IMG/VR virus record: IMGVR_UViG_3300028610_001991
Source: a virus
Length of the DNA: 64,000 bases
Reading direction: 5' to 3' (one strand)
Shown: positions 54,271 through 60,620 of the stretch, one piece after another
How positions within the stretch are numbered: position 1 is the first letter of the stretch
Layout: each line of letters starts with the position of its first letter
The notes under the pieces: model-generated
What the model saw: the letters and a program-made list of their open reading frames with translations, nothing else
Told to the model about the DNA's origin: nothing
The model's database searches: none
Program-made: the position numbers and the translations under genes

Positions 54271-54657
54271 ATGGTATTAGTTAGTGTAGGTCTTTTTTTA
54301 TTAGCGGTATCCCTGGTTTTTTCGATAGTACTTTTTTGTATGTCCTTGTCTAAGATAAAGATTGGAGGTACTATAAATGTAAACATACCTCAGAACGGAT
54401 ATCATAAATTTGCAGGTGTTGATCCTGCTCAAGGTAAAGATAGGTCTGAAATGACAATGGTCGAACATCCCGGACCAGATGGTAGTACGATTAGTTATCC
54501 TACAGCTGTTCCGGATATGAGTATACTTGATAGTGCTAAAGTTGAAACTAATATGGATTCGGAAACATTAATTATTAAAGGTAATACCAAGGGTAGCGAT
54601 ATTAAAAGTGCTGCAGCAGAACTTAAAAAAACTAAAAGTAGCAAGGGGTTAAAATGA
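54271..54657 (+). CDS. membrane-anchored hypothetical protein
   Basis: N-terminal TM; directly upstream of actin-like gene. Confidence 0.7.
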   Translation: MVLVSVGLFLLAVSLVFSIVLFCMSLSKIKIGGTINVNIPQNGYHKFAGVDPAQGKDRSEMTMVEHPGPDGSTISYPTAVPDMSILDSAKVETNMDSETLIIKGNTKGSDIKSAAAELKKTKSSKGLK

Positions 54658-55667
54658 AGGGTTTAGATATTGGGACAGCATTTATTGTTTGTATGGAGCA
54701 AGGTACTGAGGGGAACCAGGTAGTTCGTAGTGAGAGAGATGCTTTTTTTGAAGTACCTCCAGGTGAGTTTACAAAAAATATGCTTAACCAGTCTGGGGTT
54801 AATTATGTTAAGATGGACGACAAACTATATGTTATTGGTGATAAAGCTATGGAATTTGCAGAGGTGTTTGGTAGTGAAGCGCGTAGGCCACTTGCTCGTG
54901 GCTATATCAGCCCACGAGAAAAAGAAGCGCTTCCTATTTTAAATCAGATTATTAAGGCTGTAGCCGGTAAAATAAATGAAAAAAATGAGAAATTGATATT
55001 TTCGGTACCTGCGGATACTATTGATGATTTTCAGAGACAGAATGCCTTGGTATACCACAGAGAGAGTATAGCTACACTTATAAGACATATCGGGTTTGAG
55101 CCTATTGCACTTAATGAAGGTTTAGCGGTTATTTATTCTGAACTAAAAGATTATCAATTTAGCGGCCTAAGTTTAAGCTATGGAGCCGGAATGGTAAATT
55201 TTTGTGCGTCTTGGCTATCAGTGCCTATTCCTGAGCTTACTTTTGCAATAGGTAGGGGCGGTGACTGGGTAGATGAAAGTGCTGCCCGAGCTTTAGATGA
55301 GAGTATTGCAGTAGTTTGCGGGATGAAAGAATCTCCAAATGAATTTAATCTTAATGATAATTATGAATCTGGTATTCCTCAGGCATTAAGTATTTATTAT
55401 AAAGAACTTATCAGGTATACACTAATGACCTTAGAACGTGCATTTTATAAAATAAAAAGGCGGTTTCCTAAACCGATACCTATTGTTATAAGTGGAGGAA
55501 CTACATCTCCTCCTGGATTTTTGAACCTATTTACCGAGATGACAAGAAAATGTATCTTTTCTAATTTTAAAGGAGATAGGATAGAGATAGGGGATATAAT
55601 CCAGGCCGGTAATCCATTGTACTCTGTAGCTCAAGGTTGTATGATTAAGGGTGTGATAGATGGGTAA
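54654..55667 (+). CDS. actin-like ATPase (ParM/MreB/MamK superfamily)
   Basis: Phosphate-1 GLDIGT, VIGD.A, RPL..G, connect-1 NEGLA, YGAG..N, adenosine ISGGT, VA.G. Confidence 0.88.
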   Translation: MKGLDIGTAFIVCMEQGTEGNQVVRSERDAFFEVPPGEFTKNMLNQSGVNYVKMDDKLYVIGDKAMEFAEVFGSEARRPLARGYISPREKEALPILNQIIKAVAGKINEKNEKLIFSVPADTIDDFQRQNALVYHRESIATLIRHIGFEPIALNEGLAVIYSELKDYQFSGLSLSYGAGMVNFCASWLSVPIPELTFAIGRGGDWVDESAARALDESIAVVCGMKESPNEFNLNDNYESGIPQALSIYYKELIRYTLMTLERAFYKIKRRFPKPIPIVISGGTTSPPGFLNLFTEMTRKCIFSNFKGDRIEIGDIIQAGNPLYSVAQGCMIKGVIDG

Positions 55668-55947
55668 TAACGAAAACGAAATTGGTAGTTTAGGTGAATC
55701 TCAGATAACTAAGCAGGAAGAAAAAGTTATTATACCACAAAGGTTAGTAGGTAAGGATGTTGTTAACTGCCCTATAGCAGCTGCTGCAGAGTCAGTTGTA
55801 CTTGTAGATTTTTGTAAAAATATATGTTCTCATTTTGTTAAATTTATTGAAGATGAGAAATATGGTAATAGGGTTGAGTGTAAATACCCTAGATTTATAA
55901 AAGTTATTAATGTTTACGGAAAAGAAAAGTCAACTACCTTTACCTAA
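55660..55947 (+). CDS. small Cys/His protein coupled to the actin-like gene; last codons supplied by the IscB element
   Basis: CP...C...CSH...C; overlaps element left end at 55929. Confidence 0.7.
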   Translation: MGNNENEIGSLGESQITKQEEKVIIPQRLVGKDVVNCPIAAAAESVVLVDFCKNICSHFVKFIEDEKYGNRVECKYPRFIKVINVYGKEKSTTFT

Positions 55948-56185
55948 AGGGTAGGGGCTTGAGTAGTGATGCTCAACGCAAGGGTTGATTAGGGAGCTAA
56001 AAGGAAATTTTATGCAGAAGTTATTAGTAAAGTTAAAGAACACACCTACGGATGCTTCACAAGTCTGTAGCTCTGTAAATTCTGTATTAAACAAAGAGGG
56101 CACTCTTAGTGTGCAGAATAAAGTACTGGCTAATAACAATCCCGAAGTGAATCGAGTCTCTACAAACAAGACGCTCGTTAAAAGT
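55929..56185 (+). ncRNA. omegaRNA / HEARO scaffold
   Basis: GTCAACTACC...CTAAAGGG..GGGGCTTG...GGTTGA, ACCTACGGATGCTTCACAAGTCTGTAG, TTAAACA, typical HEARO landmarks upstream of PLMP. Confidence 0.85.
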
Positions 56186-56188
56186 AAA

Positions 56189-57358
56189 GTGTTTGTGCTT
56201 AACAAACAAGGTTTACCATTAATGCCCTGTAGTTATGCTAAGTCTAAAAGAATGGTTAAAAAGGGAGGAGCGAAAGTAGTTAAAAGATATCCCTTTACAA
56301 TCCAATTAACATTTGATTGTGAAAACAAAACCCAAGATATTACTTTAGGTATTGATACGGGTTTTGGTAACATTGGGTTTAGTGCTGTTTCAGAAAAGGA
56401 AGAATTAATTTCAGGAACTTTAAAACTCGATGGAAGAACTAAAGAAAGATTAGATGAAAGAAGAATGTATCGAAGATGTAGAAGAAACAAATTGTGGTAC
56501 AGGAAAGCAAGATTTAGTAATCGAAAGAAAAAAGAAGGATGGTTACCTCCTTCAACCCAAAGACGGTATGATACACATTTGAATTTAATTAACGGGTTGA
56601 AAAAGATACTGCCCATCACTTTAATTACTGTTGAAGTAGCAAAGTTTGATATCCAGAAGATAGAGAATCCAGATATCCAAGGAAAAGAATACCAGCAAGG
56701 TAATTTGTACGAATATCAAAATACAAGAAGTTACTTAATGGCTAGAGAAAAGGGTAAGTGCCAGTTATGTAGTAAAGATTTTAAAGGTCAACCAAGTCAC
56801 CTACACCACTGTAAACAACGAAATGAAGCGGGTAGTAATAGACCTGAAAACTTAGCCTTACTTCATAAAGTATGTCACACGAAGCTACACAGAAAAGGAT
56901 TAAAACTATTTAAACCAAAAGAATATAAGGCCAATATATTTATGTCTATTATAAACAAAAGGTTCTGGAAAGATGTTTCTAATTTAAAAGTTACTTACGG
57001 TAATACAACATTTGTTGATAGAAATAATTTAGAGTTAGAAAAATCTCATGTTAACGACGCTTTTGTTATTGCTAACGGTTCTAGTCAGAGAAGGTGTAAA
57101 GCGTTTAGTATACTTCAAAAGCGTAGAGCGAATCGAGCGTTGCAGTTAAATAGAAAAGGATTTAAACTTTCTATTCGTAAACAGAGATATAACTTACAGC
57201 CGCATGACTTAGTTAAAGTTAATAACCTTATTTGCACTGTTATTGGAACTCATTGCAAAGGTACTAGAGTTATGATTAATAAATTGGATAGAAAAGTTAG
57301 TGAGTCAATTAAAAATATAGAATGGAGTTTTCATTTTGGAAGTTTTACATATAATTAA
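56189..57358 (+). CDS. iscB: RNA-guided endonuclease IscB
   Basis: PLMP, RuvC-I LGIDTG, Arg-rich bridge helix, RuvC-II VEVAKFD, HNH CQLC..HH..N..NL..CH..LH, RuvC-III KSHVNDA; start approximate. Confidence 0.95.
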   Translation: MFVLNKQGLPLMPCSYAKSKRMVKKGGAKVVKRYPFTIQLTFDCENKTQDITLGIDTGFGNIGFSAVSEKEELISGTLKLDGRTKERLDERRMYRRCRRNKLWYRKARFSNRKKKEGWLPPSTQRRYDTHLNLINGLKKILPITLITVEVAKFDIQKIENPDIQGKEYQQGNLYEYQNTRSYLMAREKGKCQLCSKDFKGQPSHLHHCKQRNEAGSNRPENLALLHKVCHTKLHRKGLKLFKPKEYKANIFMSIINKRFWKDVSNLKVTYGNTTFVDRNNLELEKSHVNDAFVIANGSSQRRCKAFSILQKRRANRALQLNRKGFKLSIRKQRYNLQPHDLVKVNNLICTVIGTHCKGTRVMINKLDRKVSESIKNIEWSFHFGSFTYN

Positions 57359-57417
57359 AAAGGAGAGTGACAGTTTCTCTGTTGCTTAAAGGCGACAGTT
57401 TCCTTGTCGAAAAGGTT

Positions 57418-57756
57418 ATGATCGATCAAAACTTAGAAAGTATCACTTCTACGGTAGCTACTTTTATTGATCATTGGTGGGCATGGCTAGTACCTGTTGT
57501 AATAATGTTTATATTAAGGAGATACATATCTAATTTATGGTATCGTATCGTAATGAAATTAAGCGAGGCTCCTTATGCGAGTATAGGTAATGTGATTCAA
57601 TTTCAGGAGAACGGTACAAAATGGAAAATAGTAGGATTTACGCGACACAGCGTTTATCTTAAGAACGCAGAGAAAGAGAAGAATGGTAACCTTGCTTTAA
57701 TGCGGGTTCCTATAGACAAGTACTATAATAGTATATTTATTTATAAGAAGGTATAG
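57418..57756 (+). CDS. small membrane protein, MscS-like TM plus beta domain
   Basis: TM then IGNVI.F....W.I.....S..L....RVP; start MIDQN. Confidence 0.55.
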   Translation: MIDQNLESITSTVATFIDHWWAWLVPVVIMFILRRYISNLWYRIVMKLSEAPYASIGNVIQFQENGTKWKIVGFTRHSVYLKNAEKEKNGNLALMRVPIDKYYNSIFIYKKV

Positions 57757-57759
57757 CTT

Positions 57760-58785
57760 ATGGGTGAGTTAAGGAATAAGTATAGAGATATGGAGACGGG
57801 GCAGTTTGATAGTGTATTAAAGCCGGAGGACGAGGCTTACATTATTAATAATTATTTAAACATGACGGACGCAGAGATGGCTACTCAGTTAAAAGTAAAC
57901 ATGCAAGTAATCCAGAATTTTAGAAGTAAAAAGGGTTTAATGAAAATGTCTTATTCTTATGAGAGCGCTTTTGGTGGGGTAATGAAAGATGTCGAGAATA
58001 ACCCACAGGATAAAATGAAAGAGAAAATAGAAAAAAGTGAAGGCGGGGGTATTAAGCAGGGTAAAGGTAAGGAAAAACAAAAAAAGAAAAATGTCTCTGA
58101 GTTTTCTTACGAAGATGAAAAAAAAGCATTAAGAAAGTACTTATCTTTAGATATCAAAAAGTTAATTCCGTCTCAGTATTTAAAAGATATAGGCACACAA
58201 GATGAATTTGTAGATAAGTTTATAATTCTTAGAAAGAGTTTTAACGATGGTGAGTGGAGGGATTTTATTGCTCATTGGATGAGATATATGAAGGAGCATC
58301 AATATGATTTTAATGTAGCTGAAGACTTTGATGATTTATCAGGATTGATAAGGGAATTAATTATTCAATCAAATATATTTGATAGAAATAAAAATGCGCG
58401 TACTAGTGATGCGTTTTTTTCAATATATATGAAGCAGTTTAATGAGTCTGTAAGTAGACAGAAACGATACCAGGATAATTTAAAACTTTCCAGGAAATCT
58501 AGAAAAAGTGAAAAGGATTATGATAAAGAATCTTTTGTTGAAATAGTAGCTATGTTTGATAATGAGGAGACACGTAAAGTGATGGCTCAGGCAGATAAAG
58601 AGGATAATGTTGAGTTACTTAATTATATGGACAAAATAAGAAAAAAAATGAGAGAGGAGGTTCCGGAAGGTACTGAAATTGACGGACAGGAATCTTCTTT
58701 GCTAATGGGTATAAGCGAAGAAAAAGTTCAAGATATAGTAGATAAAGGTATTGATGTCTTAGAGAAGGAGAAGATTGAAAAATGA
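57760..58785 (+). CDS. putative terminase small subunit / DNA-binding protein
   Basis: N-terminal HTH-like (I.NNY..MTDAEMA..L.V); directly precedes terL. Confidence 0.5.
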   Translation: MGELRNKYRDMETGQFDSVLKPEDEAYIINNYLNMTDAEMATQLKVNMQVIQNFRSKKGLMKMSYSYESAFGGVMKDVENNPQDKMKEKIEKSEGGGIKQGKGKEKQKKKNVSEFSYEDEKKALRKYLSLDIKKLIPSQYLKDIGTQDEFVDKFIILRKSFNDGEWRDFIAHWMRYMKEHQYDFNVAEDFDDLSGLIRELIIQSNIFDRNKNARTSDAFFSIYMKQFNESVSRQKRYQDNLKLSRKSRKSEKDYDKESFVEIVAMFDNEETRKVMAQADKEDNVELLNYMDKIRKKMREEVPEGTEIDGQESSLLMGISEEKVQDIVDKGIDVLEKEKIEK

Positions 58786-60620
58786 TGGGTGAGAGGAAGG
58801 GTTTATCTGAGTCTGAAATAAGGATGATTAAATATTTTCGTATACGTCCTGACAGGGCTGCGGAAATGTTATTAGGTATTGATTTTTTACCTTTTCAAAG
58901 ATTACTTATTTTTATAGGTTGGTACTTTCCTTTTGTTTTAAATATACTGACTAGAGGTGCTGGTAAGACTTTTATGTTAGCTACTTTAGCATTACTCAGG
59001 GCTATGCTGTATTCTAATCAGAAGGTTGGGTTACTGGCGGCTTCCTTTAGACAATCAAAGCTACTTTTCGCTGAAATTTATAGGATATATATGAAGTCTG
59101 CGCTTTTACAAGGTATGGCGGAGAAGCCTCCTGTACGTGGTACGGATCTATGCTATTTTAATCTTAAAAATGGATCTGAAATTCAGGCATTACCTTTGGG
59201 TGATGGTGAGAAAATTAGAGGAGCGCGTTTTTACTATATAGTACTGGATGAGTTAGCTCAAATTCCGGAAATTATCCTTAATATTGTTATAATAGGTATG
59301 ACAGCAACAAAGCAGGACCCTATTAAAAGCGCAAGAATGGAGGCTTTGAAAAAGAGATTAAAAAAGGAGGGGAAAGTACCTTCTAGGAGTATACAGCTGG
59401 TTTCAGAATTAACTAAGAATTATCTAATAGGTGCTTCTACAGCTTATTACCAATTTAATCATCTTTTTAAAATGCTAAAAAATTATATAAGGGTTATAAA
59501 GGATAAAGTCATAGCTGAAAATGGTATGGATTTATGGAAGCTGTATGCAGTATACAAGTTATCGTATAAGATGATACCTGAGGGATTCATGTCTATAGAA
59601 TCGATAATGATGGCTAAGGAAAAAATGTCGAGCATGCAGTTTAACATGGAATATAATTGTTTATTTCCTGCGGAGAGTGGGGGTTTTTTTCCGGCTCAGA
59701 TTGTAATGAATGCTTATACACATAATGGACAGATACATTTTGAGCTTGCAGGGGATGGTAACGCTGCATATATACTTTTTTGTGACCCGGCAAGAACTAG
59801 TGACAACTGTACTTTTTCTATTAATAAAATATTATCTACTACAGAAGCTACCCGGTATGCGTGTGTTTGTGTAGAGGTACTTCAGGGTAGAAAGTTCCAA
59901 GAGGCTATGGAAAGGATTAGGGATATATGCCGTAGGTTTAATATTGTTAGAATCGCTATGGATCAGGGCGGTGGTGGATTAGCTATAAAAGATCTATTAA
60001 ATGATCTTGATAAATGTCCGGAAGGTGAAGAATTAATTTGGGATTTTGAAGATCCGGCCTCTTACTTAGATGAGGAGATGCAGTTTAAAAAACCTGGATT
60101 ACATATCTTGCATTTAGTTAATTTTAACCCTGCTTATTTGACGGAAGCTAATCATGGCTTATTATCCTCTTTAGAAAGAAAAGAATATGTATTTCCTACA
60201 CCGTTAGGTACAGAGGATTTGATGAATAAAGGTGAGAAGGAAGCAGAGCAATTAGAAAATGTAGAGACAGAGATGCTTGTCGCTAAAAATGAGATGATAA
60301 ACATTGTATTAACTAGAACACCAAAGGGATCTCCTCACTGGGATACACCAGCGAAAGGACAAAGAAAAGATAGATATACTGCTATTATGGGAGGCTGTAA
60401 AGAATGTAAAGATTTTATTAAGCCTGAAAATAGTGAAGAAGTAACTATAGATTTACCAACGGGAGGTTGGGCAGGTAAAGCAAGTTTGAGTACAAAGAAG
60501 GAGTTAGGTGTCGGAGCTGCTGATCTTACCCAAGGAGGAATTAAGTTTTCAGAAGCAGCAGAGAGAAGAAAAAGATTAGTTTATGCTAAAAAATTATCAG
60601 AGATAGCTGAGTTAAATTAA
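58782..60620 (+). CDS. terL: terminase large subunit
   Basis: Walker A RGAGKT, KIRGAR..YIVLDE Walker B, nuclease DPA...D, KDRYTA. Confidence 0.93.
   Translation: MMGERKGLSESEIRMIKYFRIRPDRAAEMLLGIDFLPFQRLLIFIGWYFPFVLNILTRGAGKTFMLATLALLRAMLYSNQKVGLLAASFRQSKLLFAEIYRIYMKSALLQGMAEKPPVRGTDLCYFNLKNGSEIQALPLGDGEKIRGARFYYIVLDELAQIPEIILNIVIIGMTATKQDPIKSARMEALKKRLKKEGKVPSRSIQLVSELTKNYLIGASTAYYQFNHLFKMLKNYIRVIKDKVIAENGMDLWKLYAVYKLSYKMIPEGFMSIESIMMAKEKMSSMQFNMEYNCLFPAESGGFFPAQIVMNAYTHNGQIHFELAGDGNAAYILFCDPARTSDNCTFSINKILSTTEATRYACVCVEVLQGRKFQEAMERIRDICRRFNIVRIAMDQGGGGLAIKDLLNDLDKCPEGEELIWDFEDPASYLDEEMQFKKPGLHILHLVNFNPAYLTEANHGLLSSLERKEYVFPTPLGTEDLMNKGEKEAEQLENVETEMLVAKNEMINIVLTRTPKGSPHWDTPAKGQRKDRYTAIMGGCKECKDFIKPENSEEVTIDLPTGGWAGKASLSTKKELGVGAADLTQGGIKFSEAAERRKRLVYAKKLSEIAELN

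Follow-up and report, generated by a model that had tools for sequence, protein, structure and literature searches.

IscB is an RNA-guided DNA nuclease from which Cas9 descends, and bacterial IscB elements are known to protect themselves by cutting the site that they leave behind. In the mechanism described for this family, TnpA removes the element without leaving a scar, the donor joint, which consists of the guide sequence and the transposon-adjacent motif (TAM), is cleaved by the IscB-omegaRNA complex, and recombination with an occupied copy restores the element (Meers et al., bioRxiv 10.1101/2023.03.14.532601). The literature on OMEGA systems (obligate mobile element-guided activity) further describes that TnpB is able to drive spread through a plasmid population without TnpA, and homing of IscB elements into co-infecting phages has been stated as a theoretical possibility (2026 review, PMC13565253). 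Here, we describe an IscB element in a 64,000-nt stretch of phage DNA, referred to as the window, which corresponds to bases 27426-91425 of a 180,316-bp IMG/VR virus record (IMGVR_UViG_3300028610_001991) with an estimated completeness of 96%. The element spans 1,489 bp (55929-57417) and, like all features described below, lies on the + strand; it is a complete, TnpA-less, non-autonomous IscB element of the IS200/IS605 type. We consider it likely that the element, which sits at the ATGA overlap of two phage genes, cuts only the element-free form of this junction and is restored or spread by recombination.

For two elements from Geobacillus stearothermophilus, the TAM has been determined by chromatin immunoprecipitation sequencing and library depletion, namely TTCAT for GstIscB of ISGst5 and TTTAT for GstTnpB2 of ISGst2, both written 5' of the transposon left end (LE). 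A guide in the LE pairs with the TAM and thereby allows TnpA to recognize it, the HEARO region that encodes the omegaRNA is bounded by the right end (RE), and the TAM and the transposon-encoded motif (TEM) differ at positions 3 and 5 (Meers et al., bioRxiv 10.1101/2023.03.14.532601). The window element resembles ISGst5 in several respects: TTCAT reads ATGAA in IscB orientation, as in the window family, the TEM (TTGAC in the window) and the TAM differ at the same two positions, and where TnpA reads the TAM of ISGst5 through an LE guide, an LE loop covaries with the TAM in the window family. Non-autonomous copies exist in ISGst5 as well, and its nuclease cuts the donor joint. In contrast, the proteins are only about 40% identical, as judged by Bacillus-group relatives, the window copy resides in a phage without TnpA and has the TAM ATGAT, and its open reading frame (ORF) most likely begins within the omegaRNA, about 59 codons earlier. 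Among solved structures, the closest is that of OgeuIscB (7UTN/7XHT; approximately 1e-37), which shares the PLMP/RuvC/HNH architecture, the catalytic residues and a guide at the 5' end of a large omegaRNA scaffold with the window system. However, OgeuIscB has 496 amino acids, a longer insert after RuvC-I, a longer C-terminal part and no N-terminal extension, and its TAM is reported as NWRRNA (PMC12660989).

In the orientation of the window, the order of parts is flank with guide, RE and omegaRNA, iscB, LE and TAM, with the transposon RE on the left and the LE on the right. To place the boundaries, we collected 9 relatives of the IscB protein from viral contigs, 30 from reference genomes and 80 from metagenomes. 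In about ten relatives tested with Rfam, position 1 of the HEARO model falls on GTCAAY, and the sequence upstream of it is unrelated between loci. In the window, the left flank ends with ...GTTTACGGAAAAGAAAA at 55928 and is followed by GTCAAC from 55929. As GTCAAY is conserved while the upstream flanks are unrelated, the comparison of loci places the left junction exactly at 55928|55929. In a filled and empty pair of Staphylococcus Silviavirus phages, homology likewise breaks exactly at HEARO position 1. The first bases, GTCAA (55929-55933), which are kept in all relatives, constitute the TEM and read TTGAC on the transposon top strand. The lengths of the elements in relatives range from 1,463 to 1,546 bp.

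The omegaRNA scaffold (HEARO, RF02033) at 55929-56157 matches the full model (positions 1-211) with 116.7 bits (E 2e-23), well above the gathering cut-off of 83 bits, and an intact iscB ORF with RRXRR and HNH domains follows, so that the preliminary description of this locus as an intact IscB-omegaRNA element was correct. It is the only HEARO in the genome and the only Rfam match in the window, and the element is present as a single copy in the 180,316-bp record. The RE hairpin corresponds to the first stem of HEARO, and subterminal imperfect hairpins are thus found at both ends of the element. The predicted guide, TTTACGGAAAAGAAAA (55913-55928), is drawn from the flank that adjoins the transposon RE and lies immediately 5' of HEARO position 1; its length of 16 nt is our assumption, taken from OgeuIscB. 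Nowhere else in the genome does this guide sequence occur, even if up to 2 mismatches are allowed. The true 3' end of the omegaRNA may lie further downstream than 56157, and the Rfam HEARO model lacks downstream elements (Meers et al. 2023, bioRxiv 10.1101/2023.03.14.532601).

Compared with the family TAM TTCAT, the TEM TTGAC has other bases at positions 3 and 5; compared with ATCAT, the motif at its own site, position 1 differs as well. The mismatch between TEM and TAM at positions 3 and 5 accounts for the occupied allele not being a target: since the guide sequence is followed in cis by GTCAA and not by a TAM, the occupied allele should be immune to its own IscB. In the autonomous relatives, an ORF with a Y1_Tnp domain (8e-35) follows iscB on the same strand, and after it come the same LE hairpin and TAM (L062, L064, L071, L086, L098, L100, L102, L104 and L108-L110). 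As Y1_Tnp lies between iscB and the same LE, the clade is a genuine IS200/IS605 family, some members of which are autonomous. No match to the Y1 (HUH) TnpA domain PF01797 was found in the 180-kb phage record at E <= 1, and as relatives carry a TnpA, the window copy is non-autonomous.

The iscB ORF (56012-57358) encodes a protein of 448 amino acids, and all residue numbers given here refer to this form; the assignment is based on Pfam matches, alignment to PDB structures, a conserved MQK start and a Shine-Dalgarno (SD) sequence. Residues 60-230 match the RRXRR/PLMP domain (PF14239; 2.4e-60 and 2.5e-60 in two Pfam searches) with the motif VFVLNKQGLPLMP, and an HNH domain (PF01844; 3.4e-08 and 3.5e-08) is inserted in the split RuvC domain. 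The preliminary description stated that all RuvC and HNH catalytic residues appear to be present, and the alignment to OgeuIscB bears this out. The RuvC residues are D115 (LGIDTG), E208 (TVEVAKF) and H346/D349 (SHVNDAF), and the HNH domain contains the histidine pair H265/H266 (HLHH) and the zinc ligands C250/C253 and C288/H289/H293. In an alignment of 50 sequences of the clade (A3), D115, E208, C250, C253, H265, H266, C288, H289, H293, H346 and D349 are invariant. AlphaFold2, run with the clade alignment, predicts a folded core with a predicted template modelling score of 0.61 and disorder for residues 1-56.

Most likely, as judged from the sequence, iscB starts at ATG 56012, inside the omegaRNA, to give the 448-residue protein. 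Of 83 relatives, 77 have a conserved ATG (MQK...) from which the iscB frame stays open over the 55-84 codons that precede the PLMP domain, and stop codons upstream of this domain occur about once per 70 codons in the iscB frame, compared with 5-6 in the other two frames. ATG 56012 is preceded at a distance of 7 nt by AAAGGA, which fits the usual SD spacing of this genome. The conserved PLMP/RRXRR core begins at codon 60 (GTG 56189), and this GTG was considered as an alternative start and rejected: 25 of 83 relative loci have a non-start codon there, and it lacks an SD sequence. A Bacillus clade with an equally good HEARO has stops in the corresponding frame, and its iscB begins at the PLMP domain, which argues that the open frame over the omegaRNA is not a by-product of RNA conservation. 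About 49 codons of the 59-codon extension (56012-56188) fall within the HEARO match and the rest lie just past it. Solved IscBs lack an equivalent of this extension, for which disorder is predicted, and an indel-length test for coding in the overlap with the omegaRNA, in which 12 of 25 gap runs were multiples of 3, is only suggestive. The overlap of this N-terminal extension with the omegaRNA may couple translation with guide-RNA biogenesis.

The right end of the element can be placed by an LE layout that is common to the relatives, consisting of an outer stem, a TTCMT loop, an inner stem with a CTAAAG apical loop, a TTTCC or TTTTC loop, the second arm of the outer stem, a spacer of about 8-10 nt and a short motif. 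In the family alignment (A2), the LE hairpin of the window copy spans 57369-57408 and is built from the 5' arm of the outer stem, GACAG (57369-73), the inner loop TTTCT (57374-78), the 5' arm of the inner stem, CTGTTGC (57379-85), the apical loop TTAAAG (57386-91), the 3' arm of the inner stem, GCGACAG (57392-98), the inner loop TTTCC (57399-403) and the 3' arm of the outer stem, TTGTC (57404-08). Across the 22 sequences of this alignment, 12 of 13 pairs show compensatory changes. The hairpin is followed by the spacer GAAAAGGTT (57409-57417), at which relatives have GAAAA and a further 3-5 nt; no part of the element is assigned with less certainty than the last 6 nt of this spacer. Next comes the predicted TAM, ATGAT with the core ATGA (57418-57422; ATCAT on the transposon top strand), the ATG of which is the start codon of the downstream gene.

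The identity of the short motif follows that of the LE loop. All 12 unique loci with a TTTCC loop have ATG[AG] at the expected distance, and in 10 of 11 unique loci with a TTTTC loop, the first motif is [AG]TAAA. Where near-identical elements occupy different sites, their common sequence extends no further than ATGAA(T) (L006/L013 and L076/L077) or TATAAA (L048/L094). ATGAA and ATAAA are the reverse complements of TTCAT and TTTAT, and both classes seen here therefore correspond to the two measured TAMs; given this match, the covariation between loop and TAM is the pairing expected between an LE guide and its TAM. From the family geometry and this TAM rule, and not from an empty allele, we place the right end at 57417|57418. 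The two LE classes, one with TTCCT/TTTCC and ATGA(A), here class A, and one with TTCAT/TTTTC and (T)ATAAA, occur within a single IscB clade (L046-L122, A2).

Joining 55928 to 57418, where ATGATC begins, rebuilds an uninterrupted site that reads ...GGAAAAGAAAA|ATGAT... and requires no duplicated bases, that is, no target-site duplication. With the codon of the upstream ORF that starts at 55927, the junction becomes GGA AAA GAA AAA TGA; the rebuilt upstream product has 90 amino acids and ends in ...VYGKEK, and its TGA overlaps the ATG of the downstream ORF of 112 amino acids. Letters and coordinates of this reconstruction are as given in the preliminary description, and its statement that ATGA coupling is used throughout this genome agrees with our count in the window, in which 22 such stop/start overlaps were found between ORFs of at least 50 amino acids among 744 ATGA sites on both strands. 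A random ATGA site is therefore such a junction about 3% of the time. Other parts of that description hold with qualifications. Of the insertion point that it predicted, the left junction is exact, and since no empty allele was found, the right junction is a reconstruction and not directly observed. The 3' TAM ATGA that it proposed is supported in its core, which fits the family distance and the GstIscB TTCAT, whereas the fifth base, T, departs from the majority ATGAA. GstIscB is better documented as a parallel for this TAM than AwaIscB, which that description named. Lastly, the element was said to supply a new stop and ribosome-binding site to the flanking genes: a new stop is indeed provided (TAA 55945-55947), but the case for a supplied ribosome-binding site is weak, as the AAGG of the LE spacer lies 2 nt from the downstream ATG, compared with 5-9 nt in the genes of this genome. 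Among the relatives, no conserved SD sequence was found in the LE spacer before the downstream ATG.

The empty allele of this phage or of a close relative was looked for in phage records and in IMG/VR and was not found. A blastn search of 54600-58800 against 50,697 phage records returned no match, the flank proteins (terS-like, volactin-like and TerL) had no close relative in IMG/VR, and exact 26-mers and 29-mers of the flanks were not found there either. The only relatives of the downstream protein are P0003 (118 amino acids, 72% identity, on a JGI contig of 2,134 bp) and P0004 (110 amino acids, 48%), which start at the same Met within one residue. P0003 was not found in IMG/VR; it probably represents a sibling phage.

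This homologue is also the basis for a different placement of the right end, in which the element stops short of 57418 by a small multiple of 3 nt; part of GAAAAGGTT would then be native and the target and TAM would not be ATGA. P0003 reads ...K-V-M-I-E-Q where the occupied allele of the window reads ...E-K-V-M-I-D-Q (GAA AAG GTT ATG), and this in-frame K-V before Met1 means that the last 6 nt assigned to the element could be native; IscB fragments from contigs as long as that of P0003 (2,134 bp) were searched for, and none turned up. Moreover, any boundary shift of 3 or 6 nt still yields an ATGA overlap, and the neat overlap alone hence does not fix the boundary. We nevertheless regard a misplaced boundary as rather improbable. 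Every relative with a TTTCC loop has 8-10 nt (GAAAA and 3-5 nt) between the outer stem and ATGA, there is no other TAM-like motif near the right end, and the K-V shared with P0003 amounts to two residues in an A-rich ribosome-binding stretch. It is thus the family geometry and the TAM rule that we take to fix the boundary.

In accordance with the mechanism of the family, we propose that the element would have arrived through TnpA acting in trans, presumably from a host-borne autonomous relative. Read-through transcription of the operon would then produce an omegaRNA with a 5' guide that corresponds to the last 16 or so nucleotides of the upstream gene. All ORFs between about 52.8 and 60.6 kb of the window are on the + strand, and as the element is co-oriented with this operon, read-through would yield the guide-bearing omegaRNA; a tendency of iscB towards co-orientation with the upstream gene has also been described (Meers et al., bioRxiv 10.1101/2023.03.14.532601). 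The IscB-omegaRNA complex would recognize only the uninterrupted junction, guide followed by ATGA, as it would be present in element-free genomes or after excision, and RuvC and HNH would cut it. The element would be restored or spread as the cut genome recombines with an occupied copy, and in a co-infection, repair would proceed from the occupied genome. Homing into sibling phages is plausible. What the present analysis shows is the anatomy, the boundaries, the catalytic residues and the family TAM rule described above; expression, cleavage and homing between co-infecting phages are inferred.

Several observations weigh against this mechanism. The phage has no TnpA and a single copy of the element, no empty allele is at hand in the databases searched, and the K-V shared with P0003 bears on the boundary as discussed above. 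The LE of the window copy, when folded alone, is no better than shuffled sequences (z = -0.76), and its left inner loop is TTTCT compared with TTCCT in the family. The covariation between loop and TAM has one exception, L071, in which TTTTC is combined with ATGAA. The fifth base of the window TAM is T, while the 14 strict class-A sites have A in 8, T in 3 and G in 3 cases, and for GstIscB, single changes in the TAM abolished cleavage (Meers et al., bioRxiv 10.1101/2023.03.14.532601). The single copy, the lack of TnpA, the weak LE hairpin and the off-consensus fifth base would also fit an element that dropped in once through a TnpA of the host acting in trans, landed at a harmless site and has since been a passenger with an unexpressed or inactive IscB, which does not home and is heading to decay. 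In addition, proteins of the flanks were found in three assemblies, all of them occupied, and no polymorphism is visible. However, the ORF is intact with all invariant residues kept, the omegaRNA score is well over the threshold, ATG 56012 has a good SD sequence, the element points in the direction of the operon, a requirement of IscB elements, and viral contigs often contain relatives, which likewise lie at gene junctions. An inert passenger therefore seems unlikely to us, although less so than the misplaced boundary.

One might also speculate that the nuclease serves as a weapon, which mainly destroys co-infecting element-free competitors (marker exclusion) and is kept because the phage benefits from it. 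The site is near terL, the vicinity of which is a classic location for free-standing phage endonucleases, and according to a review on OMEGA systems and the homing endonucleases of phages, the killing of competitors and homing can coexist. A weapon and a homing element are inseparable on the present evidence; yet recombination in phages is usually efficient, and a genome cut between homologous flanks would as a rule be repaired with the occupied one as template. Of the readings weighed here, we give exclusion of competitors as the principal role the lowest probability, and we favour cleavage of the element-free junction followed by restoration or spread through recombination.

The position of the window element at a gene start has parallels in the clade. 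Among 14 independent class-A insertions, the ATG of the TAM opens a co-directional ORF of at least 50 codons in 8 (L006, L049, L055, L060, L076, L118, L121 and position 57418 in the window), while 22% of other ATGR sites in the same flanks open such an ORF (p = 0.005). The arrangement in the window is therefore typical of its clade. A broader idea, which we put forward only tentatively and consider rather doubtful, is that the clade is adapted to phage genomes, with an ATGA(A) TAM that matches the most frequent kind of gene start and so lets the element insert between genes and leave them intact, a guide driven by the operon, RNA-guided homing that is independent of TnpA and about 59 codons that are dual-coding with the omegaRNA. 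Dual coding could link the choice between translating the transcript and processing it into a guide RNA. As a separate observation, class-A elements tend to sit exactly between genes.

Among phage-borne nucleases, the free-standing homing endonucleases of the T4 Seg/Mob type offer a parallel, as their genes are likewise wedged between conserved phage genes, and for the window element, too, the expected outcome is cutting of the allele without the gene in a co-infecting relative, followed by copying through recombination. Unlike these proteins, which read their targets themselves, the window nuclease would read its target through an RNA guide and a short TAM; self and non-self would be set by the presence or absence of the insert, and the element has transposon ends.

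IscB homologues are also found in cultured phages, namely Clostridium phage c-st, Ralstonia and Staphylococcus phages, cyanophages and others, in which they are usually annotated as HNH endonucleases. A distant IscB occurs in 7 Silviavirus records and is missing from about 45 siblings, and this polymorphism is visible among roughly 50 sibling phages. This insert (vB_SauM_VL10 and CIFT_MFB_MRSA12/13/21/28/32) is similar to the window element in that a phage-borne IscB is preceded by a HEARO-like RNA and the left junction is at HEARO position 1; HEARO has previously been listed as a feature of Silviavirus genomes. It differs in several ways: the proteins are only 30% identical, the HEARO match is weak (32.5 bits), and the insertion lies inside the 5' end of a resolvase gene, with a recoded duplicate of the gene start and no recognizable IS200/IS605 LE. 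In the pair that we compared, vB_SauM_VL10 (L131, OP940114.1 102609-108553) and Remus (L132, JX846612.1 60869-63308), the right end of the insert carries a recoded duplicate of the first 7 or so resolvase codons, TGACAAATTCGAAGAAAAA, as against the native TGACAAATAGTAAAAAAAA; this recoding would break the guide match. With occupied phages and empty siblings in culture, Silviavirus provides a cultivable system in which IscB homing between phages could be tested; the phage of the window is uncultured.

The window element does not constitute a new kind of element; it is a sound and well-formed representative of a known transposon family, of which it is an ordinary member. Its value lies in its clean anatomy and in the regularities at the level of the family that followed from it, of which the covariation of LE loop and TAM, the coincidence of TAM and start codon and the overlap of ORF and omegaRNA are small additions to what is known about OMEGA elements. 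As far as can be judged from the sequence, non-restorative homing would operate in just such a configuration, with a phage-borne, TnpA-less and apparently functional copy located at a clean junction between genes.

The phage carries no second nuclease or transposase of the kinds searched for, as neither TnpB, TnpA nor another HNH protein was found. The element lies about 1.4 kb upstream of terL; TerL (58782-60620) was identified by its Terminase_6N domain, and an ORF of 341 amino acids is located between it and the 112-amino-acid ORF. The latter (57418-57756) is intact, has a predicted membrane helix and shares its Met start with its homologues. GTG 57367 was considered as an alternative start of this gene and rejected, as it lies inside the element. 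The upstream ORF (55660-55947, 95 amino acids) has a native part of 89 codons and 2 nt (55660-55928) and a start that is preceded by a good SD sequence, AAGGGTG, 7 nt away; at present, it reads 6 codons into the element, and its element-derived tail (55929-55947) consists of the last base of the Lys codon, S-T-T-F-T and the TAA stop. In a search of 5.8 billion proteins, the 95-amino-acid product had no homologue and matched itself only. Directly upstream is a gene for a volactin-like actin of 337 amino acids (54654-55667; Pfam Volactin PF25216, 4.6e-70, full length), the stop of which overlaps the ORF that starts at 55660 by 8 nt. Volactin is an actin homologue described from a haloarchaeon.

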